Below are positions 1 through 58,239 of a stretch of 64,000 nt of DNA, in pieces. The notes beneath the pieces were generated by a model that made no database searches, was not told the origin of the DNA, and was given only the letters and a program-made list of their open reading frames with translations. Location: IMG/VR virus record IMGVR_UViG_3300035670_000075, positions 32,001-96,000 of that record, one strand, 5' to 3'. Numbering within the stretch: the first letter of the stretch is position 1; each line of letters starts with the position of its first letter. This DNA comes from a virus. Position numbers and translations under genes: made by a program.

Positions 1-3000
1 CGATAGTCGAGAACGGGCCTTCTTTGGCGGGGGAGTGCGGGAACAGTCTGTCAACCCATGCGAACACGTCAACAATGGCTGTCCACAGGTTTTGTGCTGC
101 GCTGGTGACGCCAGCGGAGAAGGTTTCGATGAGCGAGGCACCGAATGCGCTGTAATCAAAATTCATTGCTGAGTACAGCACACCGCCAATAATCAGCATT
201 GATTTTTTGATAGCAGCAGCAACCGCAATTTCAACCACGCTCAGTATGGCGAAACTTTGCTGTATCGCCATTGCCGTCGCCTGTTTGCCATACGCAGACA
301 GCGCTTTCAGTAGCAATTGCGCGCCAGGAATCGACAATCCAGCAGAGATCAGATTAACCACCCGATACCCAAGTGCCGCCCAGTCGATTTCCTTAACCCG
401 CTTGGTGAGGTCGGTGAAGATGCCAAGCAGCGCATCACCGAGCACACTGAAACGGAATTCGCCCTTGAACAGCGTATTGATTGCCGCCGCGACAGTGCCG
501 ATTAAGCGCCCGGCGATAACCAACAGGTGAACCAACGCACCCAAACCGCCAGCCATGAGTTGCATGGCGTGGGCGGCGAAGCGGAATGCTTCGGCAAGAC
601 CTTTGCCGAGCAGCATACCAACACCCTCTCCGGCGCTGGCAAGTCCGACGAGTTCGACTTGCGCCGCGCCTGCGGTATCCATCATCAGCAGTAAACCGGC
701 GACGGTTGGCGCAACGGCAACAGCCAGCGGCTTGAAGGCTTCGACGAGCGGCTTCATGGATTGCGCCATGTTGTTCAGAAAGTCGGTATCGTGAAAGGCC
801 GAGAAAACCCCGCTTAGATGGTCGCCAAACACGCGCAATTCTGCGCTGACAATTTTCAGCGACGGCAACATGCCCTGCATCAGTCCGGTGAAGAACGGCT
901 CAACTGCAATCCAAGCGCGGGCGAAACCCTCGCCAGCCGCGCGACCGAATGAGGCAAAATAACCAATCGCCACGCCCATTACGTCGATGGTAGCGACCAG
1001 CAGTTTCGTCCAGCCGTCAAGCGCTGCCATGAGCACGCCGCCGATGATTTTGCCGAGGAAGTGGGCGGAACCGGCGAAGAATACCAGGGTGCTGCGGCTG
1101 TCTTGGCTGGCAGCATCAAGCCCTAACAGCATGGACACAAAGCGCTGCACGGCGGCGATGACGGGGGCAAGCGCAGTGGTGATCGGCTCGAAGGCGGCGG
1201 CTAGAGCGCCTTGGATGGTCAGTAGAGCATCACCAAGCGGGCTGAGTGCGTCGAGCAAACCTTTGCCGAAGTAGATTGCCATGTATTTGCCGACTTCAGC
1301 GGCAAAGGCAATCACGTTGCGCAGCGGGCGTGTCAGCAGTTCTACATAACCAGCGGCAACCGCCGCAACTTCACCCATAAACTTGAATGCATTGGTCAGG
1401 CGGATGATTCCGTTTGTACCTGACTGCGTAAGGAATCTGAGCGCAGGAGAAAGCCCTGAGTAAATCGTCAACTGAAGCTCTGACAATGCTGATTTATACA
1501 ACCGCACATCGCCAGCCAGGTTTTCCAGGCGGGTTTTCGCCATCATTTCAGAGGTTTGGCTGTCAACATTCTTCAGGCTGTCGGCGTAACTCCCCATTTC
1601 CTTAGTCGCGCTACCAGTGGCTTTAACCAGCACATCCATTACGGTTAGCGCGTTCATACCGAAAATGCGCTTGTAAATACCTGCTCTATCAGCCTCATCC
1701 AAGTGCGCTGTGCGCTCTCTGATCTCCGTGAGGAGTTCGGTCATGGACTTCATGCCGCCCGTGGAGTTCTTGGCGCTGACACCGATTGCGCTTAATGCGC
1801 CGCCAACATCGTCAGCCAAGGCTTCGAGGTCGCCGATGTCGTCACCGGCTTCAATCATTTGGTTGGCAAATTTCTGAAAATCTTTATCGGCAATCTTGGT
1901 CGGTGCTGCCAGGCGCAGTAATGCTTGGCGTAAGGCTGTGCCTGACATGGAGCCTTTCAGTGCGGCGTCGCCAGCCAAGCCGATTGCGGCTGACATTTCT
2001 TCAAACGACATACCCAGTGATTCTGAAATTGGCGCGACGTACTTGGCTGATTCGTAGAACTGTTCGAGATTGACGTTACTGGTGCTCATCACTTTGGCGA
2101 ATACATCGACCATGTGCGGCAGTTCGTCAACGCTCTTGCCGAAGCCTGTCATCAGGTCTGATACGATGTCTGATGTCCGCGCCAACTCAGTGCCACCGGC
2201 AGCGGCGAGATTCAGCACCTCGCCTGTAGATTTCATGATTTGCTGCGTGCTGAAGCCGGCCATCCCAAGGTAATATTGCGCGTCTGCCGCTTCTTTAGCG
2301 GTAAATGCGGTTGCTTGCCCCAGGCTGCGTGCCTGGTCTTCCAGTAGCTTAAGCTCTTTGCGTCCGTCTCCGGTATTGATGTTGATACCTTTGACGGCGG
2401 CGACACTGGCAATCGCTTCCTCGAACGCCATGCCAGTATTGACAATGGCATCGAAGCTCTTGGTGAGCGTGCGAAAACCAACCACAGCCGCCGCGACCGC
2501 ACCGCCGACCAAGGCTGTTTTGGCAATCAGGCGACCCAAAGAGGCTTCGCCAACCTTGGCGCTGCCGGACATGTCTTTGATGTCGGCGTTAAATTCTTTG
2601 ATGTGTTTGCCGGATGTTTGATAGGCGGATGCCGCGCCGGACTTGAACGAACCCCAAAAACCTGCGAGTTGCGCCGGGGCTGATTTTAGGAATGAAGCAA
2701 AGCTTGAGAATGCGTCTTTGAAGGAGAAATTTTTGATGAAATTCGCAATGCCGCTACCAGCGCTGCGGAGCATAGTGACGAAGTTGGCGACTGTCAGTTG
2801 GCTGCGATCAAAGTTCTGCGCCATCGTCCACGCGGCGACGCTGGTGGCAATGATTTTGGCTTGGACGAACGAGGCGATACGCGCCAGCCTGTCTAAGCTG
2901 ACGTATGAAATTACTAAAATATTGTTCAAGCCGGAGAGCGTTTGCATGATCACACTGACTTTGGTAAACGTGTTCATGCTTTGCGCCAACCCGTAAGTGG

Positions 3001-3700
3001 CAACGGCAAGCTTAGCAATCTCCTCACGGTTGCGAACTGCACTAACCGCCATGCTTGCCAACATTAAACTGTGACCACTGCTGGCGGCGGTCGCCTCGCG
3101 GGTGGCTGCGGTGTTTTCTTTTAACGCTTGGGTATCTGCTTGCGTGTTCGCGGCAACAGGCGCAGGTAGAGCCGCAATTTTTTCTCTCTCGGCACGAAGT
3201 TCTTGGAAAGACTTGATGAGTTCTTCATTCGCCTGCTTCAGTTTTTGCGTAGAAGTCAATGCGTCGTCGAGTGCTTTGACGCCGTCTCCATCGACAGACA
3301 CGGTGATTTTTTGATTGATTACCGCCGTCCCGCCAATCCCTGCTGCCTTTTTGCCGGTCTTGTCCAGTTCTTTGTTGAGTTCACGCACTTGCTTGGTGAT
3401 GTTGCCGATAGCGGACGCGGATTGGTTTAGGCTTTTCGCGTCTAGTGCGCCACTGACTTTGACGGCATTCTTCTGGAACTGCTCGAACTCGCGTGCGGTT
3501 TTGGCAAGCTCGGCAAATTGCGCCAAGCCCTCCATGCTTTTCGCCATGCGCTCGGCGTCTTGCATCATCCTCCGCGTGGACTTGTCGAACCGCTCGGCAG
3601 TACGCTCGGCGGCTTCGCCAAGCTTGTCAACTTTCTTGCCAGCGCGATCAATGTCGCTTTCGTTGACGCCAATTTTGTATTCCAAGTCGTGTTCTTGCAT
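1..3700 (-). CDS. Tail tape measure protein, TP901-type core; 3' end runs off the window (>1230 aa)
   Basis: Absent from the ORF track, presumably because no stop falls in the window. Starts MQEHDLEYKIGVNESD at 3700; contains ATAFTAKEAADAQYYLGMAGF...LKGSMSGTALR; in-frame LFPHSPAKEGPFS at the left edge. Confidence 0.9.
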   Translation of the reverse strand, partial: MQEHDLEYKIGVNESDIDRAGKKVDKLGEAAERTAERFDKSTRRMMQDAERMAKSMEGLAQFAELAKTAREFEQFQKNAVKVSGALDAKSLNQSASAIGNITKQVRELNKELDKTGKKAAGIGGTAVINQKITVSVDGDGVKALDDALTSTQKLKQANEELIKSFQELRAEREKIAALPAPVAANTQADTQALKENTAATREATAASSGHSLMLASMAVSAVRNREEIAKLAVATYGLAQSMNTFTKVSVIMQTLSGLNNILVISYVSLDRLARIASFVQAKIIATSVAAWTMAQNFDRSQLTVANFVTMLRSAGSGIANFIKNFSFKDAFSSFASFLKSAPAQLAGFWGSFKSGAASAYQTSGKHIKEFNADIKDMSGSAKVGEASLGRLIAKTALVGGAVAAAVVGFRTLTKSFDAIVNTGMAFEEAIASVAAVKGININTGDGRKELKLLEDQARSLGQATAFTAKEAADAQYYLGMAGFSTQQIMKSTGEVLNLAAAGGTELARTSDIVSDLMTGFGKSVDELPHMVDVFAKVMSTSNVNLEQFYESAKYVAPISESLGMSFEEMSAAIGLAGDAALKGSMSGTALRQALLRLAAPTKIADKDFQKFANQMIEAGDDIGDLEALADDVGGALSAIGVSAKNSTGGMKSMTELLTEIRERTAHLDEADRAGIYKRIFGMNALTVMDVLVKATGSATKEMGSYADSLKNVDSQTSEMMAKTRLENLAGDVRLYKSALSELQLTIYSGLSPALRFLTQSGTNGIIRLTNAFKFMGEVAAVAAGYVELLTRPLRNVIAFAAEVGKYMAIYFGKGLLDALSPLGDALLTIQGALAAAFEPITTALAPVIAAVQRFVSMLLGLDAASQDSRSTLVFFAGSAHFLGKIIGGVLMAALDGWTKLLVATIDVMGVAIGYFASFGRAAGEGFARAWIAVEPFFTGLMQGMLPSLKIVSAELRVFGDHLSGVFSAFHDTDFLNNMAQSMKPLVEAFKPLAVAVAPTVAGLLLMMDTAGAAQVELVGLASAGEGVGMLLGKGLAEAFRFAAHAMQLMAGGLGALVHLLVIAGRLIGTVAAAINTLFKGEFRFSVLGDALLGIFTDLTKRVKEIDWAALGYRVVNLISAGLSIPGAQLLLKALSAYGKQATAMAIQQSFAILSVVEIAVAAAIKKSMLIIGGVLYSAMNFDYSAFGASLIETFSAGVTSAAQNLWTAIVDVFAWVDRLFPHSPAKEGPFSTI

Positions 3701-20758: not shown

Positions 20759-21320
20759 TCAATATCTCCACAAAACCGCCGTTTCCGTCTTCCATGTAAT
20801 GCCACTGGTAATCTAAAGAGTCCCATCGCCATACATGTTGCCAACGGTTATCAACTACATAATCACCTTCGTAGGTGTGAACGACTAGCACCATATGGTA
20901 TTCGGTACGTTCTCTATCTGCCCAACAGGTAGCTAATCGTAACTGGCTACGGTCAATACCTTCTAACATCAATAACAGTAATGCGAATACTGCGTGTCCA
21001 TCACAGTCATCAGCTATTTTGCCAGCAGGTGTTAAGTTTGGTACTTCCCAGTTGTCTATTTCACCATCAGGTGTGTAGATAAAGTTACGAAATAGAAAAC
21101 TTCTGACATCTTGAAGTATCGTTAAGATACTGGCGTTGTCGGAATGTAATTGATAACCCTCAATTCCGTTAAGACTGTATTTAAGGTAGGCAACGCGTAA
21201 ACTTCGCTGGAAAGCTTTGTAGCGTTGATAATGTGAATCAGAAAGCCAATGCTTTTCGCCGGTTTGAATAAACGGTTCTACAGCGAAAAACTCTTTTAGC
21301 TTTCTAAACAGCCATTTCAT
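20751..21320 (-). CDS. Transglutaminase-like cysteine peptidase (BTLCP/C93, LapG-like)
   Basis: DNWEVP, DDCDGHA, YHMVLVV, YVVDNR: Cys-His-Asp triad. Confidence 0.8.
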   Translation of the reverse strand: MKWLFRKLKEFFAVEPFIQTGEKHWLSDSHYQRYKAFQRSLRVAYLKYSLNGIEGYQLHSDNASILTILQDVRSFLFRNFIYTPDGEIDNWEVPNLTPAGKIADDCDGHAVFALLLLMLEGIDRSQLRLATCWADRERTEYHMVLVVHTYEGDYVVDNRWQHVWRWDSLDYQWHYMEDGNGGFVEILNG

Positions 21321-29001: not shown

Positions 29002-30471
29002 TTAGCCCCCCATCAGCAGGTTGTTTTTGGAGCGCACTTGCTGTGCGGATTTTTTGAACGCATCAGCATCCAAGCCCATTTGACGCGCGATGGTAGACTG
29101 CGCGATGGTCAAGCCGCTGTCTTCGTCGTATTCGTGGACGCCGCCGGTTTGAGAAGCTGCAAACGCACGCATCGGCGTACATGCCGCCAAATACTCTTTC
29201 AGTCCGTCGATGTTTTGCGCACCCATGCGCTTAGCCCAGGTGACTTCGGCTTGGCTGACCAGCTTGCCGCTGGCTTGAGCTTCGGCAATCAGGGATTCCA
29301 ACTCGCGGGCTTTCGCGTCGCGCTCTTGGGCTTCCAGTTTTTCCGTCAGCTTGGCGATGATTTCTTTCTGCTCCATCAGCACACTCTGATCGGGCAGAAC
29401 ATCATTACCTTTGGTAGTTGCGGCGGGGGCAGCAGTGGATTGTTTATCGGCAAGAATTGCCGCGATTTTTTCGTCTTGCGCTTTCAAGTTGGCTTGCATC
29501 GTTTCGATAGCGGAGGATGCTTTGGCGGACTTGGCGATCAGATTACCGACCGCCTCAGCCACCGCGTCATCGCCAGCATCTTCCGGCAGGCCAAGCGCAG
29601 TTTTCATTGCTTGATAGTCCATTGAATGACTCCTGTTTTGAGTTTGCTTGGATTGACTGGGTGATAACTCGCTGATCACGGATTCCAGGCTACCCAACCT
29701 GTCCGCCAGCCCTGCTTCAACAGCCTTGGCTCCCGTCAGGATGCCGCCGCCACCGAATCTATTAAGAACTGTGTCGATTGATACGCCACGGTTTCGCGCC
29801 ACATCACGCACGAACACATCGGCTAAATCGTCCACGTTTTGTTGAATTTGCGAGCGCCCGTCTTCCGTCGCCGGATCGGGGCGTTTATTCGGGGATTGCG
29901 ATGACACGATTTCGTGCTCAACAACGCCAAGCCCCTCTTTCATCTTCCGGCTGTCAACATAAGTAGCAACAACACCGATAGAACCCAGTTGCGCGGTTTT
30001 ATCAACCACGATGTCGCCCTTCTTGACTGCGCTGGACAGCCAGTACGCAGCACTTGCCGCCATGCCACCAACGTAGGCTATGATTCGCTTCTGCTTGGCG
30101 TAGGCGCGAATGTGGGACGCCAACTCGCTAATCCCGGTGACATGCCCGCCTGGGCTGTCAACCAATAACACGATGCCGTTGACTTCCGGGTTATCGACCG
30201 CAGCGGAGATGTCTTTTGCCAACACTTCGACCGACGTTGCGCCGCTGATTTCCGTCATTAAATTGGCTTTGGGGAAAATCGCGCCTTCAATTGGAATGAT
30301 TGCAACGCCATCCCGATAGGTGACAGTGCGTGTATATTGCAGCGGCTCGCCACCACGCATCAGAACTGAGTGGTACTCGTTCTCGCGCTGCGCAATCGTG
30401 CGAATCATCTCCAGCCATTCGGCTGTAATCAGCCACGGCGCGGAGTCGATGAGGTGAATTAACGGTTTCAT
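29002..30471 (-). CDS. S49 (SppA-like) prohead protease fused to scaffold; probable internal scaffold start at 29622
   Basis: DSPGG, AASAAYWLSS, GSIGV; C-terminal IARQMGLDADAF; AGGAG RBS before MDYQAMK. Confidence 0.88.
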   Translation of the reverse strand: MKPLIHLIDSAPWLITAEWLEMIRTIAQRENEYHSVLMRGGEPLQYTRTVTYRDGVAIIPIEGAIFPKANLMTEISGATSVEVLAKDISAAVDNPEVNGIVLLVDSPGGHVTGISELASHIRAYAKQKRIIAYVGGMAASAAYWLSSAVKKGDIVVDKTAQLGSIGVVATYVDSRKMKEGLGVVEHEIVSSQSPNKRPDPATEDGRSQIQQNVDDLADVFVRDVARNRGVSIDTVLNRFGGGGILTGAKAVEAGLADRLGSLESVISELSPSQSKQTQNRSHSMDYQAMKTALGLPEDAGDDAVAEAVGNLIAKSAKASSAIETMQANLKAQDEKIAAILADKQSTAAPAATTKGNDVLPDQSVLMEQKEIIAKLTEKLEAQERDAKARELESLIAEAQASGKLVSQAEVTWAKRMGAQNIDGLKEYLAACTPMRAFAASQTGGVHEYDEDSGLTIAQSTIARQMGLDADAFKKSAQQVRSKNNLLMGG

Positions 30472-30567
30472 GTATCGGATAATAACCTGTTTATTTTTGC
30501 AAGTCATTGTTATAATGGTAAAAATAGCCTGCTAGGTAGCTATGTATAAACTATAGAGGATTATGCG

Positions 30568-31236: not shown

Positions 31237-31302
31237 AATATTTCTACTGGAGTCTAGGTTGCAATGGATACCATTCTTGTGTTGTGCATCTTTATTTGTG
31301 GA

Positions 31303-31332
31303 ACGGTGTCGGCTGTACCGCTAAGTTAGGGG
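31303..31332 (-). repeat. Truncated attC half-site (array A)
   Basis: GTCGGCTGTACCGCTAAGTTAGGGG resembles the ends of the other attC sites; the other half is absent. Confidence 0.5.
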
Positions 31333-31337
31333 TTATT

Positions 31338-31520
31338 ATGAATGAGAAAGAGTTGCTTGAGATAATCAACGCATACAAAAACGATATTTTATCCAACGAT
31401 GGAGATAAAGCAGATCGTTTTTTAATGATGCTTGCAAAAGAAGTTGAACGTCAAACACGCCATAAAGCAGTGAAAATTGCTTACGATATGGCAGAGAAAA
31501 TTAGCGATCTGAACTCCTAA
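31338..31520 (+). CDS. Gene-cassette ORF, hypothetical
   Basis: Bounded by GTTAGGGGTT / AACTCCTAAC (9/10 complementary). Confidence 0.65.
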   Translation: MNEKELLEIINAYKNDILSNDGDKADRFLMMLAKEVERQTRHKAVKIAYDMAEKISDLNS

Positions 31521-31613
31521 CGCCGAGCTAAGCCTACCGGTGCTGCCGGTCAACTTGAACCAAAACCGAAAAATCTCGGCGGCACCGGGTCGGCCTTGAG
31601 CGATAAGTTATGG
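31515..31613 (-). repeat. Integron attC site (array A)
   Basis: On +: TCCTAACGCCGAGCTAAGCC...GTCGGCCTTGAGCGATAAGTTATGG; imperfect palindrome with core sites. Confidence 0.85.
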
Positions 31614-31807
31614 CAGATATTACAATGTGCATCAATCAAGCATGTGATATGCGTGAAGACTGCTATAGAGCAAAAGCGACACCTGCTGTTTTCCAAAGTT
31701 TGTGTTTTTTTGCTCCGATAAACGGTAATTGCGAGAATTATATTGAGTATAAGCAGCACACTAAAAAAGCAAAAAATACTGGTATTTGTAGCCATAACGC
31801 TTTATAG
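31610..31807 (+). CDS. Gene-cassette ORF, small Cys-rich protein
   Basis: MADITMC...C..C.R; cassette ends GTTATGGC/GCCATAAC. Confidence 0.65.
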   Translation: MADITMCINQACDMREDCYRAKATPAVFQSLCFFAPINGNCENYIEYKQHTKKAKNTGICSHNAL

Positions 31808-32045: not shown

Positions 32046-32285
32046 TTAACCACCACTCGCAAACCCCGCGTAATTTCTAGCCTTCTCAGCCGCAAGCCTT
32101 TCAATCTGCTTGCGCCTACGCTCTGCTTCCAACTCCGCTGTCCCATCTGGCACAACCAAATAAGCTTGCTGCTTTACGTCATCCCACATCATCCTTGCGG
32201 GGTCGAATGCCGCTGGACTGATGGGGATTATCTTCTCGTTCTGCTTTGGTTGTCTGCCGATAACATCAGGAAAATCACTCGCCAT
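32046..32285 (-). CDS. Hypothetical protein downstream of the portal
   Basis: Overlaps the portal stop; GAGGA RBS. Confidence 0.45.
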   Translation of the reverse strand: MASDFPDVIGRQPKQNEKIIPISPAAFDPARMMWDDVKQQAYLVVPDGTAELEAERRRKQIERLAAEKARNYAGFASGG

Positions 32286-33690
32286 TCAAATCTTCCTCTT
32301 CCACGTCGCTTTCGTTGTCATCGTCACTTACCGGATCGATTGAGTCATCCGTCATGTCATCTTCAGGCTGACTATCAACTGACGGATCTTGTGGCGGCAT
32401 TTCCACATCGCTTTCGCCACCGCCAATATCCTCGTAATCATCGCCGTAACGCTCGGCCACTGATTCCGGCTTCAACCTGTACCCCATAGCGAACAACTCT
32501 TTATCGCGGGCAACGCGCTTGTCCTCGTCTTCAGTAGCAGAAATATCGAAGAAGATTTGCGGCACGCGGCGCAGGTCGCTGGTTCCGGTATTGAGCAACA
32601 TCAGCATCGTCAACAATTGATGCCGAGTGGTTGGCTCGTATTGACGGAAATCTGAAACTGCCAAGTCCCACATTTCCGTGTTGCGCATATCGCCACCGGA
32701 GAATACCCCAGTACGCTCCGCAAAAGCCTTTTCAGAACCAGTCAGCAGGCGGCGAGCCAGTGACCCAAACATATTGTACCAATTGATGAAGCTTGCCGTT
32801 TGACCTTTTACCGCATCAAGCTCTTTGATGTTCATGCGCTCAGGCATAATGCCGTAAGCCTTTTCGATCATCATTGCCATTGCCGACTTGAGTTTGCGCT
32901 GGTCGGTTTTCGATGTGCCTTCAGGGAATGTGGCGAACAGTTTTGGTATACCGTAATTGTGTAGGAACGCTTGTCCGTCGCCATGGGTTTCCATGCGCGA
33001 TAACCACGCCCAAATCAGCGCCATGAACAAGCCTGACTCATGCGGATAGCCTGGCACTGCTTGGTGCTTATGCACGACCCATCCAAACGGCCAAAATGGT
33101 TCGTCACCGCCAAGCCGTGTTTTGTAGCGCAACACGTTTTTGTTTTTACGCCACGGCGTCGCGACAGAGATATTGCGCTGCTGAAATTCAGGAACCCACA
33201 CGCCGTCGATTTTCTTCCACCCGCTGCCGCCTTCCTCGTCGGCAATTTCCATCAGCGAAAACCCGGCACCGATACCGGCAGACAAGCCAAGCAGATAGTC
33301 GTCGAAGTTTTTGATTTGCGCCAGGATGTCGCGCAAGATTTTTACGTTCTTTTTGTCTTCGCGCTTCGCCAGTCCACGGTCTACCACAAATCCGTTTTCA
33401 TCGCGGTAGCTGTCCCAGGTGTAAATGTCGAACGACACTGACAGCGGTGCGGTCGCCCGCATGTTAAAGCCCCACATGATGTCGGGGTCAAAGCGCAGCA
33501 TCATCCACCACAGGCGGGATAATCTTGTCAGGTCGCCGTCATTGGCTTCGCCGATGATGTTGTAGATGTCGGTTGGGCGTAGATTACGGTAAATCTCGCT
33601 GTAATCATTCTGCGCCAAACCGAATGAGATGGCTTCGCCGTCGCTTTCGGTTTGCGATTCTTTCAGTGCTTTAATCGCCATTGCTACCAA
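32275..33690 (-). CDS. Mu gp29-like portal protein (DUF935)
   Basis: GFSLMEI..W, WVVHKH, F.HNYGIP..., IMPERMNIKEL. Confidence 0.8.
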   Translation of the reverse strand: MVAMAIKALKESQTESDGEAISFGLAQNDYSEIYRNLRPTDIYNIIGEANDGDLTRLSRLWWMMLRFDPDIMWGFNMRATAPLSVSFDIYTWDSYRDENGFVVDRGLAKREDKKNVKILRDILAQIKNFDDYLLGLSAGIGAGFSLMEIADEEGGSGWKKIDGVWVPEFQQRNISVATPWRKNKNVLRYKTRLGGDEPFWPFGWVVHKHQAVPGYPHESGLFMALIWAWLSRMETHGDGQAFLHNYGIPKLFATFPEGTSKTDQRKLKSAMAMMIEKAYGIMPERMNIKELDAVKGQTASFINWYNMFGSLARRLLTGSEKAFAERTGVFSGGDMRNTEMWDLAVSDFRQYEPTTRHQLLTMLMLLNTGTSDLRRVPQIFFDISATEDEDKRVARDKELFAMGYRLKPESVAERYGDDYEDIGGGESDVEMPPQDPSVDSQPEDDMTDDSIDPVSDDDNESDVEEEDLNGE

Positions 33691-46284: not shown

Positions 46285-47076
46285 ATGCACCAATACCTCG
46301 ACTTCCTCCGCCACATCAGAAACAATGGCGTAACCAAAGCTGACCGCACCGGAACCGGAACCACCAGCGTATTCGGCTACCAGATGCGATTCAACTTGCG
46401 CCACGGCTTCCCCCTGGTGACAACGAAGCATGTCCACTTACGCAGCATTATTTATGAATTGCTGTGGTTTTTGCGCGGTGATACCAACGTCAATTACCTA
46501 CGCGACAACGGCGTGACGATTTGGGACGAATGGGCTGACGCCGACGGCAATTTAGGCCCGGTGTACGGTGCGCAATGGCGTAGCTGGCCGTCAGAGCATG
46601 GCGAGCATATCGACCAACTCGCCGAAGTTCTACACGACATCAAAAAGAATCCAGATTCCCGCCGTCTCATCGTCAGCGCATGGAACGTCGCGGAACTGAA
46701 ACACATGGCGCTACCGCCGTGTCACATGCTGTTTCAGTTCTATGTCGCCAACGGCGCGCTGAGTTGCCAAGTTTACCAGCGATCAGCCGATGCGTTCCTG
46801 GGCGTTCCGTTCAACATCGCGTCTTATGCGCTGCTAACACACATGGTAGCGCAGCAATGCAACTTGCGCGTTGGCGAACTCATTTGGACAGGTGGTGACT
46901 GCCATATTTACAGTAACCACACAGACCAAGTTGAATTACAACTATCTCGCCAACCACTAGAGCTTCCTCGGCTTGAACTGCGTAAAGCGCGTGATTTATT
47001 TTCCTATGACTACAGTGATGTGGTTATACACGACTACAGACCGCATCCACGGATATTTGCTGAGGTGGCAGTATGA
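46285..47076 (+). CDS. thyA: Thymidylate synthase
   Basis: [30 protein letters not shown]. Confidence 0.97.
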
Positions 47077-48864: not shown

Positions 48865-49323
48865 ATTTGGATGACATGACCATAAGATGAATCAGTAACA
48901 GAAATTCTTGAATATCGCTCACCGTGGAAAACAAAGCGAGCGGTAAAAAAAAAAGGCAAGTGGCTAAGCCGTCATGAGAAGCGCCCGCCGAGCGCTTGAA
49001 ATTGCCACATCGGTACGAAGCATCACTGGCTCCAATAGGCAAAGGCGTCTTGAAATGCCGGTGTGTTGCGGTTCGATTCCGTGACTGTGCTTTTTTTATA
49101 GCTATAAGAAGTCAGCAAAATGCATCTCTATTACTGTGGACGTAAAAAATGGCGCGGTTATATGAATCGCGTAACTGAAGCTAGTATGCTTGATGCTTTA
49201 CCATTCGGGAAATTAATTGCGCGGGTAAAAAAGCATCAGGTTTATTTTGTATGTCGTGATGTTTCAAGAAGTCAGCAGGCAATTAAATTGAAAAGATTTT
49301 GGCGGGCTTCGCGCAGTGAATAA

Positions 49324-49421
49324 AGATAACGCCCGAACTCAGGCGACCATTGCCGCCTATGAGCTTTAATTAACCAATTTAAACCGGCGGCAATGGGTCG
49401 GCCTTGACCGCCAAGTTAGGC
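49324..49421 (-). repeat. Integron attC site (array B)
   Basis: On +: AGATAACGCCCGAACTCAGGCGACCATTGCCGCC...GGCGGCAATGGGTCGGCCTTGACCGCCAAGTTAGGC. Confidence 0.85.
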
Positions 49422-49440: not shown

Positions 49441-49686
49441 ATGAACACAGACGATATAATGAATGAATCTGAGAAGCTTACAGAGGAACTTGTAAAATAT
49501 CTAGCAAAACGTAAAACAAACCGCGCAGTTGCGATCACGTCATTAGTAGATTGCTGCGTTTTTATCGCTACCGAGTCGAAAGATGAAAAAGTCATTTTCA
49601 CAATACTTGATATGATTCATAAAAGAGTAGACTCAATTGCCAATGAGCTTTTTGCAGAGCGTAGCATATGGAAAGTTAAAGCCTAA
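49441..49686 (+). CDS. Gene-cassette ORF, hypothetical
   Basis: Cassette ends GTTAGGCTTT / AAAGCCTAAC (10/10 complementary). Confidence 0.7.
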   Translation: MNTDDIMNESEKLTEELVKYLAKRKTNRAVAITSLVDCCVFIATESKDEKVIFTILDMIHKRVDSIANELFAERSIWKVKA

Positions 49687-49736
49687 CTTGTAGATAGGCA
49701 GAATGTTGAATAACTGTTATTTAACATTCTGCCTAT
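49681..49736 (-). other. attI-like site containing a 43-bp palindrome (copy 1)
   Basis: ATAGGCAGAATGTTGAATAAC-T-GTTATTTAACATTCTGCCTAT at 49694-49736, next to the core site. Confidence 0.6.
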
Positions 49737-49741
49737 TACCA

Positions 49742-50302
49742 TCACTGCAACGTCACATCATCAGCACCAAGTCTATCTTGGATGCCTATTAACAAAGCCA
49801 ATTCATCCTGGCTCAACTGCTTCACAAGCTCGCGTTCGTCTTTGACTTTCAACTCACCACTAACTTCAGACCTGCTATCTACGCTAAGCCTGTCGAAGCG
49901 CCCAAACTCATCGCGGTAACGTCGCTCCAACAGCCATGCAATCGGTTGCCACGGTGGAGGCGCGGCTTTCTGAATGACCTCGCGGCTGAGTAGGTTGCCG
50001 TCTGCGTCGTAGCGGCGCTTTTCTTCTATAATCACTTGCTTCTGCGTTGAAGCGTCTAGCATCTTTCTAAGCAGGCTTTTCTTGTACTCAAGCTTTGCTT
50101 TTTTTATAGTCTCTGAAAACTCCGAAAACACAGGAGACTTTCTTTCATCTCCGCTTTTCATCCAATCATAAAAAGCAGCTTCACTAACGCCAGCAGCAGT
50201 GCAAGCATCTGCATTTGAAAGCCCTGCCTTAAAAGCCTCCACCAGTATCGCTATAATGTCAGGCGTGAATACCCTCTTCCGCCCGGTCTTACTCTTCGCC
50301 AC
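49742..50302 (-). CDS. Terminase small subunit-like HTH protein
   Basis: GRKRVFTP...ACTAAGVSEAAFYDW; W..IAWLLERRY.DEFG. Confidence 0.7.
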   Translation of the reverse strand: MAKSKTGRKRVFTPDIIAILVEAFKAGLSNADACTAAGVSEAAFYDWMKSGDERKSPVFSEFSETIKKAKLEYKKSLLRKMLDASTQKQVIIEEKRRYDADGNLLSREVIQKAAPPPWQPIAWLLERRYRDEFGRFDRLSVDSRSEVSGELKVKDERELVKQLSQDELALLIGIQDRLGADDVTLQ

Positions 50303-50966
50303 TTTGTCTCACCACCTTCTTTCTCTTCTGCACATCGGGGTAGCGCAGAATAATTCCATCTAATTCAGTTTCAAATGCCAGCAAGTCATCCATTGGTACA
50401 CTGACTGTTATCTTAGCAACTTGCTCCATATTGTCGCCGCCACCATCGCCACCGAAGTCATTGCCATCACCGCCGAAGCCATCACCAAATCCGCTGTTTT
50501 GCAAACTCGCAAACAACGCGCCAGTGTCAACTTCAAGTGCCTTCAGTGCATCGGAAAAGCCAGCCTCCAACGCACTCAAGTCCCACTCGCCACTCACACC
50601 TGGTAGTGGGTTGTCGAGCAGTAAGATTTGCTCCTCTTGCGCCGGGGTCAGCCCGCTGCACACAACGGCTGGAGCGTGAGTAACACCCATGTACAGCACA
50701 GCATCGACACGCAAATGCCCGGCGCACGACATCAACTTGCCAGTCCTATCTGACAATATCGGCAATCGATTCATAAACAACTCAGGAGACTGTTTAATCC
50801 CCTCTGCGAGATTATGAATCTCTACCTTGCCGTACTTGCGCGGATTGGCGCTGCCATTGACAGATGTATAGGGGACTATCTCTCTGTAATCAACCGTCAG
50901 CAACTCGCACTTGGCGGAAGCGGTTATTACGTCCAAAAGCTGTTTTTCTGTTTTTTGCTGCGACAT
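50289..50966 (-). CDS. ParB-N-like domain protein
   Basis: NPRK, AGHLRVDA, LLDN...GEWD; upstream of the TerS-like gene. Confidence 0.65.
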   Translation of the reverse strand: MSQQKTEKQLLDVITASAKCELLTVDYREIVPYTSVNGSANPRKYGKVEIHNLAEGIKQSPELFMNRLPILSDRTGKLMSCAGHLRVDAVLYMGVTHAPAVVCSGLTPAQEEQILLLDNPLPGVSGEWDLSALEAGFSDALKALEVDTGALFASLQNSGFGDGFGGDGNDFGGDGGGDNMEQVAKITVSVPMDDLLAFETELDGIILRYPDVQKRKKVVRQSGEE

Positions 50967-52784: not shown

Positions 52785-52998
52785 TGTTATTTTCCTTTGG
52801 AGTGAAAAACATGCTTACGACTGTTAGGGCTAGAGTTTGCAGAGTTGGTGAATGGGCAGTGTTCCGCACAAAACAGCATGGATTGGTCATGCAAATGGGC
52901 GACGGTTATATGAAAGCGCCTCTGCAAAAAAAGAATATGTTTAAGTTAAATATCAGCGGTAATACGCCATGCCTGGTAAGGTCGCGATGCGATATTAA

Positions 52999-53095
52999 AA
53001 CTAACGCCAAAGCTCAGGCGACAACCGCCGTCTGTGAACCATAAACAACCAAAAAGCCTAACGGCAGCGGGTCGCGCTCAAGTGTGAAGTTAGGC
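52999..53095 (-). repeat. attC site C1
   Basis: AACTAACGCCAAAGCTCAGGCGAC...GTCGCGCTCAAGTGTGAAGTTAGGC. Confidence 0.8.
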
Positions 53096-53109
53096 TGTGG
53101 AGATAAGCC

Positions 53110-53397
53110 ATGACTGAGATTGTAAAAGGAATGAAAATTACGCCTTGGGGTACTAAAGATAACCCTCTTATGCAGGGAATGTTTGTTGGTTGCGTACAAT
53201 GGGCGATTGGTGATAAAGATATAGTTGAATCGTTCAAGAAAGATACAGGTAATGACCTGAACTCGTTAAGATTTTCAGGTATTGATGGAATGATTGATGA
53301 AGCTACAGGAAGGGCTGGAGAGATGTTTGCAGCCTTTGCGGATTATGTGGCTGAAAATATCTGGGGTGATGAAAACTCGGATATTGATGCAGCCTAA
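53110..53397 (+). CDS. Gene-cassette ORF, hypothetical
   Basis: Ends GTTAGGCTG / CAGCCTAAC; GGAG RBS. Confidence 0.7.
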   Translation: MTEIVKGMKITPWGTKDNPLMQGMFVGCVQWAIGDKDIVESFKKDTGNDLNSLRFSGIDGMIDEATGRAGEMFAAFADYVAENIWGDENSDIDAA

Positions 53398-53490
53398 CGC
53401 CAGAATTAACCCGACATGCGCCGCCAATTAACTAAAACCAAGTCATAAAAGCCCGACGGCGCATGGTCGGACTTGATGGCAAAGTTATAC
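53392..53490 (-). repeat. attC site C2
   Basis: GCCTAACGCCAGAATTAACCCGACATGCGCCG...CGGCGCATGGTCGGACTTGATGGCAAAGTTATAC. Confidence 0.85.
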
Positions 53491-53499
53491 GGAGACTAT

Positions 53500-53805
53500 A
53501 TGAGCAAGCAACAATGGGGACATGGATACCACCGTGGTTTTAATAAAGGATACGCAAAGGCGAAGCGCGAAGAGGAAACAAAGCGCGCTTTCAAAGAAAA
53601 TAAACATGCTCATTGGGTTGAGATTACTCATTACGGAAGCGAAGGCGTTGAGCCAAAAGACCGCATGTTATGCGGTGATGTTGGTGGTAGCTGTATAAGC
53701 GGAAGCGGTGAAAGCATATGTGCTGGCTATCGCGGTGAAAATGAAACAGGTACACATGTGATATGCGCTGAAAAACCAAGAGCGTATAAGCATGATTCCG
53801 TATAA
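53500..53805 (+). CDS. Gene-cassette ORF, hypothetical (Cys-containing)
   Basis: Ends GTTATACGGA / TCCGTATAAC. Confidence 0.7.
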   Translation: MSKQQWGHGYHRGFNKGYAKAKREEETKRAFKENKHAHWVEITHYGSEGVEPKDRMLCGDVGGSCISGSGESICAGYRGENETGTHVICAEKPRAYKHDSV

Positions 53806-53898
53806 CGCCAGAACTCAGGCGACCATTGCCGCCTGCAAACTTAAACTTTAGCCAGTTCACTCCGGCGGCAATGGGTCGCCTGGAGTGACAAGTTATAT
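53800..53898 (-). repeat. attC site C3
   Basis: GTATAACGCCAGAACTCAGGCGACCATTGCCGCC...GGCGGCAATGGGTCGCCTGGAGTGACAAGTTATAT. Confidence 0.88.
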
Positions 53899-53911
53899 TG
53901 AGGTAACAAAT

Positions 53912-54181
53912 ATGATTAAAAATCTCAGAAATGATTTTATTGAACTGATGTCAGAGTCATATGTAAAAATGCCAAGGCACGACAGAATATGTCTGCTCCA
54001 TGCAATGGACGCACCTGACAATAACCCAGCGACAGGGCTGCCATTTCAAACAGTAGGCGAACTGTTTGGTTCAATGAGTGACGAATCTTTGGCAACAGTC
54101 TATCGCGATATGCGTGATAACGAATTATTAGCAAGTCGGGACAGCTACAGAAAATATGAAGAAGCCATTAAAAATTTGTGA
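53912..54181 (+). CDS. Gene-cassette ORF, hypothetical
   Basis: Ends GTTATATT / AATATAAC; GAGG RBS. Confidence 0.7.
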   Translation: MIKNLRNDFIELMSESYVKMPRHDRICLLHAMDAPDNNPATGLPFQTVGELFGSMSDESLATVYRDMRDNELLASRDSYRKYEEAIKNL

Positions 54182-54285
54182 ATATAACGCCAAAGCTCAC
54201 GCGACCAATACCGCCCGCGATGAGCTTTAATCCGGCACTAAATTTTGTGGGCGGTATTGGGTCGCCGTGGAGCGTAAAGTTAGGT
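54182..54285 (-). repeat. attC site C4
   Basis: ATATAACGCCAAAGCTCACGCGACCAATACCGCCC...GGGCGGTATTGGGTCGCCGTGGAGCGTAAAGTTAGGT. Confidence 0.88.
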
Positions 54286-54290
54286 GCTTA

Positions 54291-54446
54291 ATGAATAAGA
54301 ATATGAGAGCGGTAGCAAGGAAATCATGCTGGATGGCTAATGGTTTTTTCGGTTCAAACCGCAAAGAAGCCGTTCAAAAAGCAATAGAAAACGGAGTTAA
54401 ACCCGAAAACATAAAAGCTAAAAAAGTATATCCATCTGGCAAATGA
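54291..54446 (+). CDS. Gene-cassette ORF, 51-aa basic peptide (not in the ORF track)
   Basis: MNKNMRAVARKSCWMANGFFGSNRKEAVQKAIENGVKPENIKAKKVYPSGK; ends GTTAGGTG / CACCTAAC. Confidence 0.55.
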   Translation: MNKNMRAVARKSCWMANGFFGSNRKEAVQKAIENGVKPENIKAKKVYPSGK

Positions 54447-54453
54447 ATTTTAC

Positions 54454-54551
54454 ACCTAACGCCTGAGCTAAGCCGCGCTGCGCCGCGATGAACTTTATAT
54501 TAACCTGCTCAAGCCCGACGGCGCAGCGTCGGCTTGAGCGCAAAGTTAGAG
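54454..54551 (-). repeat. attC site C5
   Basis: Minus strand CTCTAACTTTGCGCTCAAGCCGACGCTGCGCCG...GCGCAGCGCGGCTTAGCTCAGGCGTTAGGT, a canonical attC top-strand layout. Confidence 0.92.
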
Positions 54552-54628
54552 GTTGACATGGATAGAATCAAGGTAACAAAAGATTGCATTAAAGTATATG
54601 AGCAGCAAAAAGGTTCAAAAGAATCTTC

Positions 54629-55198
54629 TTACTTATCAAGAAGAAGACTTCTAATTTCTTTGAAATCGTCATCATCAAGAAAGAAAAACTGACATGATTT
54701 TGATTTCTTTTTATTTGACATAATCGTTAATCCTTTATATATGCTTAACGATTGTGTCTTTTTGGCATCTGCACTTGATAATATGCTAACTTTATTAAAT
54801 CCGTTTTTTTCAAAAAAATGTTCTTTACCAATTGAAGATATGAAACATATAGGAGAGAATCTTTCTTTCACTGTGCTAAGCACAAGACTACCAATACCTT
54901 CCATTCTGTATTTTTCTTCAACATATATGCGATGTAGATAGAATTTATCTCCAGGAAAATGAATAACCATAGCATAAGATATTGGGTTTCCTTCATAAAG
55001 GTAAGCTATGATTTTCAAATTACCAACACGAAATAACTCTTTAAATATATTTGATATATAATTTAAAGCATTATCATAATTTATGTTTTTATCAATTGAT
55101 AGCCCAATAATCATTGGAGTTATAAGAGCATCCTGAAGCATTATCTCCGATTCTATTTTTATTATCTGGTTTATATCTGATTGACTAAGCTCACTCAT
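54629..55198 (-). CDS. GNAT acetyltransferase, AT-rich gene cassette in canonical orientation
   Basis: LHRIYVEEKYRMEGIGS, FFEKNGF; ends GTTAGAGGT / ACCTCTAAC. Confidence 0.8.
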   Translation of the reverse strand: MSELSQSDINQIIKIESEIMLQDALITPMIIGLSIDKNINYDNALNYISNIFKELFRVGNLKIIAYLYEGNPISYAMVIHFPGDKFYLHRIYVEEKYRMEGIGSLVLSTVKERFSPICFISSIGKEHFFEKNGFNKVSILSSADAKKTQSLSIYKGLTIMSNKKKSKSCQFFFLDDDDFKEIRSLLLDK

Positions 55199-55202
55199 AT
55201 TT

Positions 55203-55255
55203 ACCTCTAACTTGTAACTAGGCAGAATGTTAAATAACTGTTATTCAACATTCTG
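55203..55255 (-). other. attI-like site containing a palindrome (copy 2)
   Basis: CTAACTTGTAACTAGGCAGAATGTTAAATAACTGTTATTCAACATTCTG, near-identical to 49683-49731. Confidence 0.6.
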
Positions 55256-55267
55256 TATAATACAACC

Positions 55268-55594
55268 ATGTCACAATCATTCCTATCAGCCAACGCCAGG
55301 GCGCAGCGCAGGCACAAAGCCAAACGCGCTGCGCTAGGCTTCTCTCAGCTTAATTTCTGGATTCACGAAAAAGACCGTGACATTCTGGCTTCGGCACTGA
55401 AAAAATACAACGCTGACAAGCTTGAAACGCTGGAGCGGCGCATGAGCTTAATCATTCGTGTCGCCAACGACGAAACTGAAATAACACTGCACGAAGCATC
55501 AGAAATACAACAAAAGATGTTTCCAGAAAATAAACCGCTACCAATAAAAAAAACATGGTGGCAGAAAACCAAAGCATGGCTTGGCGTTAACTAA
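55268..55594 (+). CDS. Hypothetical protein with RHH-like N-terminus
   Basis: NARAQRRHKAKR..LGFSQLNFWIH. Confidence 0.55.
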   Translation: MSQSFLSANARAQRRHKAKRAALGFSQLNFWIHEKDRDILASALKKYNADKLETLERRMSLIIRVANDETEITLHEASEIQQKMFPENKPLPIKKTWWQKTKAWLGVN

Positions 55595-55688: not shown

Positions 55689-56774
55689 TTGACACAGATG
55701 GAAACTGAAGATTTAGAAGAAAATCATGAATCGGATACGCGCGAAAGACTTCTCAAGAAATACGCCGCAAAATCCATACGGAAAAAGACGCGGCAAGACT
55801 ACGAATCAAGACTTAGGCTTTATCAAGCGTCAGGTAGAAAACTTCCAGCAACTGACGTTGAAATCGTAGAATACATCGAATCGGCAAAAGTCATGTCGCG
55901 TAAGAAAAACGGCGAATACATTACCAAAGACAGCTTGCTTGCTGTGTCATCAGTCCAATCAATAGTTGCTGCTTTGTCGTGGTGGCATCAAGAAAATAAC
56001 CACCAAGACCACACAAATAGCGCGCTGGTTAAAAAAGCCATTGCAGCAATCAAGCGCGAACGCGCAAAACCGCAAGCGCAAGCGCGAGCAATAAAAACTG
56101 AAGAAATTGCAGCAATCACTGAAACGCTACTCGAACTACAAACAACCCAAAATGCCGCAGACAATCTCCGCGCAATCCGCGATCTGGCTTTTATCCTCGC
56201 GCTGTTTTACACCGGGTGCAGAGAAAGCGAAATCCGTCACCTCAGAGTTGATGATCTGGAGTTTACAGATGACGGTCTAATCGTAAAAATCAGAAAGTCA
56301 AAAACAGACGACGGAACTGGAAGAAACACGCCAATCCCATACCGCGATGCTAACGGACAAAAAATACTCGCGGCATACGCGATCTCTGATTGGATTGAAA
56401 AGGCTGGAATAAAGTCTGGCTTCGTATTCAGAACAGTAGACCAATACGCTGTCGTCGGTCGTGGGAAAAAGCCGCTAGACTATGGGTTTTCTTCACGGAC
56501 ACTACTCAAATACGCAGAGATGTCAGGCGTATCAATAGACGGAATCAGCACACACTCATTCAGAGCCGGGTGCGCAACAGCACTAAATTTAAGCGGCGCA
56601 GGTATTGCCGAGATAGCGCAGCACTTAGGTCATCGCTCAACGGCGTCAACGATGAAATACTTACGCGCCGACGCATCAACCAGACTTAAAGACGCACCAA
56701 CACGGAAAATTGCGCAGCCAAAGAAAACTTTTACGCAGATAGTTTTCACGTTTATTGCACGTTTATTTTCGTGA
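55689..56774 (+). CDS. Cre/TnpS-like tyrosine recombinase (resolvase type)
   Basis: RDLAFIL..TGCRESEI, IRKSKTD, THSFRAG, LGH.S...TMKY. Confidence 0.88.
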   Translation: MTQMETEDLEENHESDTRERLLKKYAAKSIRKKTRQDYESRLRLYQASGRKLPATDVEIVEYIESAKVMSRKKNGEYITKDSLLAVSSVQSIVAALSWWHQENNHQDHTNSALVKKAIAAIKRERAKPQAQARAIKTEEIAAITETLLELQTTQNAADNLRAIRDLAFILALFYTGCRESEIRHLRVDDLEFTDDGLIVKIRKSKTDDGTGRNTPIPYRDANGQKILAAYAISDWIEKAGIKSGFVFRTVDQYAVVGRGKKPLDYGFSSRTLLKYAEMSGVSIDGISTHSFRAGCATALNLSGAGIAEIAQHLGHRSTASTMKYLRADASTRLKDAPTRKIAQPKKTFTQIVFTFIARLFS

Positions 56775-56918: not shown

Positions 56919-58055
56919 TCACGATTTTTGCACGTCGAGTGATTCCAGCATGGCTTTGAATTTGTCTCCGGCGTTGGGTGCTGCGGTTGGCATCCAGCGC
57001 GCGTAGAATTTGCGGATCATTGCCCAGTCAGAGTGTCCCATCACGCTTGCGATCCATGCCGGGTTTTCGCCAGCGGTGAGCATCATGCAGGCGAATGTGT
57101 GGCGGGTTTGATAGGGGTAGCGGTAGCGTACTCCGGCGCGCTTCAGAGTTGGACGCCAGACGAATTCCCGTATAGTTTTGTCGTTGCTGTACGGTTTGTT
57201 GGTTTTGGGGTCGAAGAAGATTTGTGCGGCGTGGTGGTAGGTGTGTGATTTTTGTGCAATCACGGCTTCTAACGCGGGGTCGAACAAGGGGACTTCGCGG
57301 CGGCCTGATTTGGTTTTTGGTTCTTTGGTGATTTTGCGTGATTGACTGAGGCGGATGAATACGCGGCGGTTGGGTTCGTCAAAGTCTTCCCACCGTAGCG
57401 CTAGGAGTTCGCCTGTGCGTAGTCCGGTGAAGAAGGCGAAGCGGATGAGGTTGCGGTGTTGTTCGTACTCGCAGGCGGCGAGGATTTGTTGAATCTCTTG
57501 CGGGGTGAATGGATCGGGTTCTTGCGTGGTGGTTTTGAGGTTTTTGATTTTGTCGGCTGGATTGCGTTCAATGGTGCCGTCAATGTAGGCGTCTTCGAGC
57601 ATTCCGCGCAGCGGGATCATGATGTTGTTGATGCGCTTGTTGCTGATGACCAGTCCGGCGATCCAGTCTTTGATGTGGGCTGTTTTGAGGTCTTTGAGCT
57701 TGATATGACCGAACTGAGTTTTCAGGTGGTGATCAATCGCGCTTTGGTAATCGCGGATCGTGGTGTGTGATTTGCCGTGGCTGTTGTTTCGCAGCCAGGC
57801 GTCCAGCGCCTCGGCAATGGTTATTGCGGTAGGCGCGTAGTCGTCGAATAGGGTTGCGCGTTTTGAGTTGGGGAAATGTTTGCGGTAGCTGAATGTGCCT
57901 ACTGCTATTTCATGCTCGATGGCAGCGGCAAGACGCTCGCCGTGTTTTCTATTGGTCAGCGTGTCTTTCAGGCGCAGGCTCTCGCGGCATTGCACGCCGT
58001 TGAGGACGAACCCGATCCACAGCCTGTCGCCGTCTCTTGTGTAGATTTTCGCCAT
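56919..58055 (-). CDS. int: Phage integrase with N-terminal arm-binding (DUF3596-like) domain
   Basis: CRESL.L.DT..N, FSY.KHFPNS, TGLRTGEL, PKTKSG.R, YQTRHTF, MGH, FYARW. Confidence 0.93.
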   Translation of the reverse strand: MAKIYTRDGDRLWIGFVLNGVQCRESLRLKDTLTNRKHGERLAAAIEHEIAVGTFSYRKHFPNSKRATLFDDYAPTAITIAEALDAWLRNNSHGKSHTTIRDYQSAIDHHLKTQFGHIKLKDLKTAHIKDWIAGLVISNKRINNIMIPLRGMLEDAYIDGTIERNPADKIKNLKTTTQEPDPFTPQEIQQILAACEYEQHRNLIRFAFFTGLRTGELLALRWEDFDEPNRRVFIRLSQSRKITKEPKTKSGRREVPLFDPALEAVIAQKSHTYHHAAQIFFDPKTNKPYSNDKTIREFVWRPTLKRAGVRYRYPYQTRHTFACMMLTAGENPAWIASVMGHSDWAMIRKFYARWMPTAAPNAGDKFKAMLESLDVQKS

Positions 58056-58239
58056 GTGCGCTGGTATTTCCCCACATCCAGTTACGAATCGCATCTAAAT
58101 CATACACGATTCGTTTGCCGTCAGGGGCTTTTTTCCAATGCACGCCTTCCAGCCAATGCCCAAGTCGGCGATGAGACTCTTGGGATTTTTGGCTGTAGCC
58201 TGTTTCGCGCGCCAATACGTCACCGAGTACCGGCGTCAT
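57949..58239 (-). CDS. Excisionase-like protein overlapping the integrase start
   Basis: ARETGYS...G.WLEGVHWKKAPDG.RIVYDL.AI..W. Confidence 0.7.
   Translation of the reverse strand: MTPVLGDVLARETGYSQKSQESHRRLGHWLEGVHWKKAPDGKRIVYDLDAIRNWMWGNTSAHGENLHKRRRQAVDRVRPQRRAMPREPAPERHADQ

Follow-up and report, generated by a model that had tools for sequence, protein, structure and literature searches.

Seven attC sites in three loci of a phage genome

The stretch of DNA analysed here (the window, 64,000 nucleotides, nt) corresponds to bases 32001-96000 of a linear IMG/VR virus record of 105,387 nt (IMGVR_UViG_3300035670_000075), which CheckV rates as 95% complete and which carries the tailed-phage marker genes terS, portal, head protease and ThyA. 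The window has integron attC sites, accompanied by small open reading frames (ORFs), at three loci (31.5 kb, 49.3 kb and 53.0-54.5 kb), and the subject of this report is the orientation of these ORFs relative to the sites. The pattern TAACGCC...AAGTTA occurs as seven repeats of 91-98 nt, all on the plus strand, where 0.04 would be expected by chance. The loci at 31.5 kb and 49.3 kb have one full attC apiece (31518-31610 and 49327-49418). The main array has five within 1.6 kb (53002-53092, 53395-53487, 53803-53895, 54185-54282 and 54457-54548; overall 53002-54548), in one orientation and with no integron integrase (IntI), which makes it a cluster of attC sites lacking integron integrases (CALIN).

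All seven repeats open with YTAAC, as in an R'' box (RYYYAAC), and close with AAGTTA(R/T), as in an R' box (GTTRRRY). Folded as single-stranded DNA, they form a short R stem (TAAC/GTTA), an unpaired spacer of 5-6 nt, a long L stem and a variable loop. Single-base bulges, one or two per site, interrupt the L stem, and only on its plus-strand 3' arm; attC 53803 has two. Searched by blastn, the rightmost attC (54449-54556) showed 84-93% identity to the arms of class 1 attCs, the matches being attCs of aac(6')-Ib, GES and qacL cassettes; this site, which was assigned by blastn and arm alignment, is the nearest of the seven to class 1 attCs. We also built a covariance model, R1, from the plus strand of the window's own seven repeats. 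Among the sites assigned by the pattern, R1 gave 101, 99.6, 98 and 108 bits on plus versus 9, 17, 12 and 33 bits on minus for attCs 31518, 49327, 53395 and 53803, respectively, and 90.7 and 95.8 bits for attCs 53002 and 54185; the assignments of 49327, 53395 and 54185 rest on their folds as well. R1 matched seven class 1 attCs on one strand only (25-40 bits, E = 1e-8 to 1e-4) and scored up to 109 bits on attCs of IntI-bearing integrons. By their boxes, their palindromes and their similarity, the seven repeats are true integron attC sites.

No attC beyond these seven was detected by R1 in the window or the remainder of the 105-kb record. By eye, the degenerate 3' arm of an additional attC, ending in GTTAGGG, can be recognised at 31290-31335 on plus, below R1 detection. 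When a loose attC pattern was run over genome contigs, R1 identified about 13 of 120 loci as real attC relatives and most others were chance matches; three extra viral loci found with a pattern of the 3' arm only were discarded, as R1 confirmed none of them as attC.

The plus strand of the window is the attC bottom strand

A gene cassette is defined by a fixed relation between gene and attC, since recombination of the bottom strand ensures insertion in sense behind the cassette promoter (Pc). We tested the polarity of the attC sites in four ways, by arm asymmetry, by direct similarity, with the covariance model and against native integrons. The plus-strand 3' arm of the window sites bears the extra unpaired bases; seven class 1 attCs, when read on the top strand (the one that encodes their cassette genes), carry such bases on the 5' arm instead. 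The canonical attC 5' arm, TTCAAGCCGACGC, pairs with a 3' arm without the C and A, and it was with this arm that we compared the reverse complement of the plus-strand 3' arm of the window, CTCAAGCCGACGC. When the class 1 arrays of the clinical plasmids pHCG11 (NC_019081) and pSL264 (AP024914) were turned to match the window plus strand, 10/10 cassette genes came to lie on minus, with intI1 to the right on plus. R1 scored the seven canonical class 1 attCs with 25-40 bits on the bottom strand versus at most 8 bits on the top strand. Native integrons with the same attC subfamily were found in Thiomargarita, Giesbergeria and Thiotrichales metagenome-assembled genomes (MAGs), where IntI scored 505, 428 and 434 bits, respectively; placed in the R1 orientation, intI in all three lies to the right on plus, past a lone RYYYAAC box.

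The four tests agree and, as judged from sequence, the recombinogenic (bottom) strand of the attCs corresponds to window plus and the top strand to minus. This is the polarity that the preliminary description of the locus had read from the arm asymmetry, and it is borne out by class 1 similarity, R1 and the position of native intI as well. The covariance model, which might have assigned the top strand to plus, instead matched canonical bottom strands from the window plus strand.

Seven of eight cassette ORFs lie on the bottom strand

At 31.5 kb the plus strand encodes a 60-amino-acid (aa) ORF whose stop TAA lies in CCTAAC (31338-31520) and, past the attC, a 65-aa ORF with its ATG in GTTATGG (31610-31807; phrog_20586, E = 4.6e-6), within which a lone ATAAC box occurs at 31794-31798. 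The cassette at 49.3 kb holds an 81-aa plus ORF with its stop in GCCTAAC (49441-49686). Four plus ORFs follow one another in the main array: 95 aa (53110-53397, stop in GCCTAAC; family of 362 representatives, phrog_5692), 101 aa and cysteine-rich (53500-53805, stop in GTATAAC), 89 aa (53912-54181) and 51 aa (54291-54446). The ORFs starting at 31338, 49441, 53500, 53912 and 54291 were called from sequence and codon usage. In the main array the longest frames are thus 95, 101, 89 and 51 aa on plus versus 0-65 aa on minus.

A canonical cassette has a top-strand ORF that runs from the attI side towards its own attC. A single ORF conforms, a GNAT acetyltransferase gene on minus (54629-55198; Pfam GNAT families; phrog_10454, E = 1.6e-22) with attC 54457; the seven others are on the bottom strand, so that the earlier count of seven plus-strand ORFs out of eight stands. 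The GNAT cassette is AT-rich (38% GC in the 54-56 kb bin), and its top-strand Shine-Dalgarno (SD) sequence is supplied by G|TTAGAGG at the attI-like end of the array described below. Its position at this end fits a recent arrival from the bacterial cassette pool.

Two further plus ORFs flank the arrays and are phage ORFs rather than cassettes. One lies to the left of attC 49327 (49120-49323). The other (52811-53044) extends 42 nt into attC 53002, which, as the leftmost attC of the main array, is the one farthest from the attI-like end; such an overlap is expected where an array that entered a secondary site has its far end.

The preliminary description also held that the plus ORFs fill their cassettes, mostly with a ribosome-binding site just after GTT, and that four of them stop inside the TAAC core. 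An SD-like purine run, often the RRR of GTTRRRY, precedes the ATG by 5-9 nt in 6/7 ORFs, just past the GTTA; no such run was found before the ATG of ORF 31610-31807. All seven ORFs do fill their cassettes. The stops at 31520, 49686, 53397 and 53805 are indeed the TAA of a TAAC core when checked in the sequence, although four of seven is near the one-in-three expectation from frame and is not significant by itself.

The bottom-strand ORFs resemble phage genes

We compared the seven plus ORFs with a codon table made from 31 long genes of the phage. All seven scored best in plus frame 0, and 6/7 scores were positive. The family of ORF 53110-53397 comprises 362 cluster representatives at E <= 1e-3, of which 40 reach E <= 1e-10; nearly all are about 85-120 aa long. 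One relative, P0003, is 48% identical and is an ordinary gene in a tightly overlapping operon on two IMG/VR contigs, with no attC. Word-based homologue searches with ORFs 53110-53397 and 53500-53805 returned only self matches, and tblastn of the 95-aa ORF against the phage collection gave no match. A 3,044-nt contig encoding a protein identical to the 101-aa ORF was run X1's own contig over 52290-55333. From their codon usage and relatives, the plus cassette ORFs look like real phage-type genes. The check on whether their homologues are phage genes, which the preliminary description had asked for, gave an ordinary phage operon gene without attC for the 53110-53397 family, and the PHROG matches. 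At each of the three arrays, the phage transcription unit around it is encoded on the attC bottom strand.

Bacterial arrays are mostly canonical

Cassette orientation was scored by longest ORF in the same way for the window and for bacterial arrays. Canonical cassettes made up 16/19 in the chromosomal integron of Arenimonas terrae, 3/5 in the Giesbergeria array, 3/3 in two other MAG arrays and 6/6 in class 1 arrays, or 28/33 in all (5 inverted). The window, with 1 canonical and 7 inverted, differs from these (28 and 5) at Fisher p = 2.5e-4, in line with the strand bias that had been proposed for phage as against bacterial arrays. At the bacterial background rate the probability of at most one canonical cassette among eight is 1.3e-5; cassettes within an array share a transcription context and, being non-independent, amount to three loci rather than eight observations. 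In MAG and metagenome contigs, the long attC subfamily of the phage accompanies mostly canonical ORFs, so the site type does not bring inversion with it.

Two bacterial arrays showed features of their own. In Giesbergeria (contig L030), a long phage-like attC (2422-2530; R1 108.8 bits) stands among short attCs of 66-70 nt, and its cassette has a canonical 126-aa ORF. This phage-like attC suggests that the attC type has been exchanged between phage and bacterial arrays. In Thiomargarita (contig L081; intI 1117-2058), the two attI-proximal cassettes (41-943) are identical 445-nt copies in tandem duplication, and neither strand has a convincing ORF.

The same geometry occurs in a distant phage

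A second phage with attC sites, IMGVR_UViG_3300033186_000039 (G001; 130,708 nt, direct terminal repeats, no IntI), has about 25 genes in common with the window phage, at 25-55% amino-acid identity; at the nucleotide level the two share essentially only an attC, and their cassette loci are not syntenic. The order in G001 is a 61-aa ORF ending in CCCTAAC, an attC, GTTAT, an SD, a 94-aa ORF and a lone ATATAAC. All G001 cassette ORFs are on the bottom strand as called by R1, and ahead of them lies a second, divergent attC with the same polarity. A metagenome contig (L161) is arranged alike: a 123-aa phage-type ATPase (phrog_2071, E = 1e-27) ends in TGCTAAC and is followed by an attC, an SD, a 73-aa ORF and a second attC, the ORFs again being on the bottom strand. 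Another contig (L154) is similar in appearance and ambiguous.

attI-like ends and possible traces of turnover

By the polarity of the attCs, attI would fall at the right end of the main array, and both there and at the right end of the 49.3-kb cassette CTAACTTGTA leads into a palindrome whose arms measure about 20 bp. The copy heading the main array, a lone CTAAC box and palindrome, lies at 55207-55265 on plus, and the second, which ends the one-cassette array, at 49682-49740 on plus; the two agree at all but 4 of 49 nt. At the centre of the palindrome, AATAAC-T-GTTATT looks like an R'' box set almost directly against an R' box. Neither IMG/VR nor G001 contains the palindrome pattern, and the attI-like element has no similarity to the attI regions of Thiomargarita or Giesbergeria.

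Variant contigs from the same subsurface-metagenome study switch to other sequence precisely at CTAAC boxes. One match to the window begins at 54456, with ...TCATAT before the CTAAC; one begins at 55207, preceded by 255 other letters before CTAACTTGTAAC; and another variant contig diverges past 55256. The junctions at CTAAC boxes, thin as this evidence is, are those expected if cassettes are replaced at the AA|C crossover.

To the right of the attI-like site lie a 108-aa ORF of unknown family (55268-55594, plus) and a Cre-like tyrosine recombinase gene (55689-56774, plus), the latter in the position and orientation of an intI. The recombinase has the catalytic R, H, R, H and Y, and its nearest solved structure is Cre (about E = 1e-6). 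We considered it as an IntI and rejected it: it scores 28 bits against the 265-bit cut-off of TIGR02249 and 24 bits against the 435 of PRK15417, has a 15-aa gap at the IntI extra segment and lacks the KYP..W.WQ.VFP motif. No TIGR02249 match was found in the whole 105-kb record. Searches with the recombinase and with P0153 returned no relatives from viral contigs. The Cre-like recombinases of both phages (55689-56774 here and L171 9032-10105, minus) have a similar lysine-rich tail, KK(T/S)F(T/L)Q.

Phage context and other observations

Next to the second attI-like copy, on minus, are the small terminase gene terS (49742-50302) and a gene for a ParB-like nuclease (50289-50966). Thymidylate synthase (ThyA) is encoded at 46285-47076, the portal at 32275-33690 (minus) and the head maturation protease at 29002-30507 (minus). 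A P4-type integrase with an Arm-DNA-binding domain (56919-58094, minus) is about 50 kb from a full-length phage tmRNA (6578-6914, plus; 161 bits; tag peptide ANDERYAVAA). Window positions 2-3700 (minus) form the first part of one ORF that spans about 24 kb (about 8,000 aa; record 11590-35700), with a counterpart in G001 (43997-68701; 34% identity over 1,356 aa).

Just upstream of ORF 49120, a tRNA-like T-arm (GGTTCGATTCCG) and a T run occur within 48950-49100 (plus); ARAGORN called no tRNA there. Near 49 kb, run X3 shows a 5-nt insertion at 49014 and one contig that skips 49105-49266. Beyond the window, about 100 nt of the record (98512-98613) match G001 at 20930-21017 and 29130-29221 with 72-73% identity; this is a second short repeat common to both phages, and not an attC. 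Searched by blastn against the phage collection, 52000-57000 gave no match. A look-up in the Atlas returned viral clusters with scores of at most 0.86, which we take as a lead only.

Discussion

We favour the reading, with a probability of roughly 0.65, that true attC sites form three integrase-less, CALIN-type arrays in this phage of about 105 kb and that the cassettes are mirror-image cassettes of phage genes. The mobile unit would be [attC - SD - ORF - TAA|C], the mirror image of a bacterial cassette, and would be transcribed by read-through from phage promoters to the left. During infection or lysogeny a host IntI, acting in trans, would excise and insert such units at the AA|C crossover. 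We favour a host enzyme because the phage has no IntI, its recombinase has neither the score nor the segment of one, and the G001 homologue is far from the attCs of G001. This agrees with published evidence that IntI1 acts on phage attCs (PMC9892861) and that IntI places cassettes at many sites other than att (bioRxiv 10.1101/2022.09.11.507474). With the polarity of the array fixed relative to phage transcription, only bottom-strand ORFs would be expressed and kept. Cassettes from the bacterial pool, such as GNAT, would arrive antisense to the phage operon, and phage cassettes moved to a bacterial integron would be antisense to Pc. That the plus ORFs would be antisense in a host integron, as the preliminary description had suggested, is predicted directly by the attC/ORF geometry established here.

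Several points weigh against this reading. The phage sample is small, three sequences with five loci between them. There is some circularity in the codon test, as stop codons penalise the other frames, and for 6/7 plus ORFs nothing better than weak PHROG hits was detected among possible relatives. The longest-ORF score is a crude measure, by which 5/33 bacterial cassettes were inverted as well. A promoter and terminator scan did no better than on shuffled sequences and gave no convincing promoter. Each replacement junction is seen in one assembled contig from a single study, with 13-30 letters of other sequence visible. Finally, mobilisation in trans by a host IntI is an assumption. One idea that we considered for why the bottom strand should be the coding strand comes from replication: when a gene runs with the fork, its sense strand serves as the lagging-strand template, on which attC bottom strands fold and recombine most readily (PMC13108822), and recombination proficiency would then belong to arrays that code on the bottom strand. 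In the window, GC skew simply follows the orientation of the genes.

The orientation might instead be a by-product. On this account an ordinary operon gene became a cassette in place, when an attC entered upstream of it at a secondary or attG-type site and a TAA|C at the end of the gene closed the unit, an origin that we consider unlikely. The 53110-53397 homologue, a normal gene of tightly overlapping phage operons devoid of attC, would be such a starting point, the four stops within the TAAC core and the phage ATPase ending in TGCTAAC on the metagenome contig would be the closing boxes, and there is precedent for IntI inserting cassettes across many genomic sites and for their excision with modification of the genome (bioRxiv 10.1101/2022.09.11.507474). 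A unit made in this way would necessarily be inverted, and the orientation would reflect no more than an attC landing in a compact genome, which seems to us improbable. The left-flank insertions are not at stops, the box of 49327 lying 3 nt past the stop and that of 53002 being read through, and we rejected targeting of stop codons at the array flanks as a general rule on these two cases. The frequency of core stops is close to that expected from frame, and no syntenic phage without attC was found. The absence of a second R box past any attC excludes simple insertion of ORF-less attCs, and with it we discarded the variant in which attC-only units were inserted between existing genes.

Two other explanations dispense with a host IntI or with any role for the orientation. 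The Cre-like recombinase and the CTAAC-palindrome site could together be an IntI-free phage analogue of an integron that builds the arrays itself. The recombinase gene is about 430 nt from the attI-like site, on plus, where native integrons have intI, its catalytic residues are complete, and the attI-like element heads two arrays. We nevertheless rate this as very unlikely: beyond the sub-cut-off TIGR02249 score and Cre as the nearest solved relative, the protein lacks the IntI segment contacting flipped-out bases, its G001 homologue is about 68 kb from the G001 attCs, the second attI-like copy stands beside terS with no recombinase, and the attCs are typical IntI substrates common to IntI-bearing integrons. 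Lower still in our estimate is that the arrays are passive relics, fragments of a bacterial chromosomal integron in which the plus ORFs are chance frames or unrepresentative inverted cassettes and their orientation is meaningless. Phage-borne fragments of chromosomal integrons (in Vibrio anguillarum phages) and phage CALINs are documented (PMC9892861), and the 5/33 inverted cassettes found here show that bacterial arrays can supply such ORFs. Chance relics would hardly be co-oriented with the local phage transcription unit at each of three separate loci, have phage-like codon usage, include an ORF from a family found in phage contigs, or recur with the same geometry in a phage only 25-55% identical at the protein level, and the background probability of 1.3e-5 also stands against them.

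Beyond the favoured reading of integrase-less arrays of mirror-image phage-gene cassettes, large phages whose hosts bear integrons may, as a possibility that we hold only tentatively, keep a mirror-image cassette pool of their own, swapped from phage to phage by host IntI in the course of infection and silent, being antisense to Pc, in a host integron. A phage gene would then turn mobile through an upstream attC and a closing TAA|C and be expressed only in phage arrays that code on the bottom strand, a step that we regard as conceivable and still doubtful.

Phage attCs are IntI1 substrates, and the phage CALINs described by Qi et al. (2023) carry cassettes in the orientation typical of bacterial arrays (PMC9892861). 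Like those, the present arrays consist of several co-oriented attCs and single-gene cassettes inside a phage without intI, with inverted GTTRRRY-type palindromes at the array boundary (here centred on TAAC-T-GTTA); unlike those, 7/8 ORFs at three loci are on the attC bottom strand, and the arrays end in a duplicated attI-like palindrome. Inverted cassettes of sedentary chromosomal integrons, for example those with toxin-antitoxin genes, also run opposite to attC polarity and are independent of Pc. There they are a minority (5/33 in our scoring) with their own promoter (PMC13108822), whereas here they are the rule, very compact and apparently dependent on an external phage promoter. The sequence and structure of the attCs are those of the Thiomargarita, Giesbergeria, Thiotrichales and class 1 integrons, and the layout of array, lone RYYYAAC box and rightward recombinase on the bottom-strand side is that of a complete integron, yet IntI is missing, a Cre-like recombinase stands in its place and the cassette ORFs are on the other strand. 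Insertion at attG or secondary sites (bioRxiv 10.1101/2022.09.11.507474) would account for the scattered single cassettes at 31.5 and 49.3 kb, but that work concerned bacterial chromosomes and does not predict a consistent inversion of ORF against attC. Phage CALINs and a minority of inverted cassettes are thus known, and in the literature that we searched, which was incomplete, we found no report of systematically inverted phage cassettes, no such array system, and no usable published share of inverted cassettes.

Our findings suggest that attC arrays can also work with their other strand coding, provided that transcription comes from an external phage promoter. Should this hold in general, surveys limited to top-strand cassette ORFs would miss phage cargo, and the cassette pools of phages and bacteria would be kept partly apart. 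The cargo consists of small phage proteins and might supply accessory or counter-defence genes. The way in which genes first come to carry an attC is a long-standing question, and compact phage operons would, if the arrangement is general, offer a testable setting for the birth of new cassettes. Should phages indeed keep a cassette pool of their own, it would amount to a second route of cassette origin and to a one-way valve between the phage and bacterial pools.

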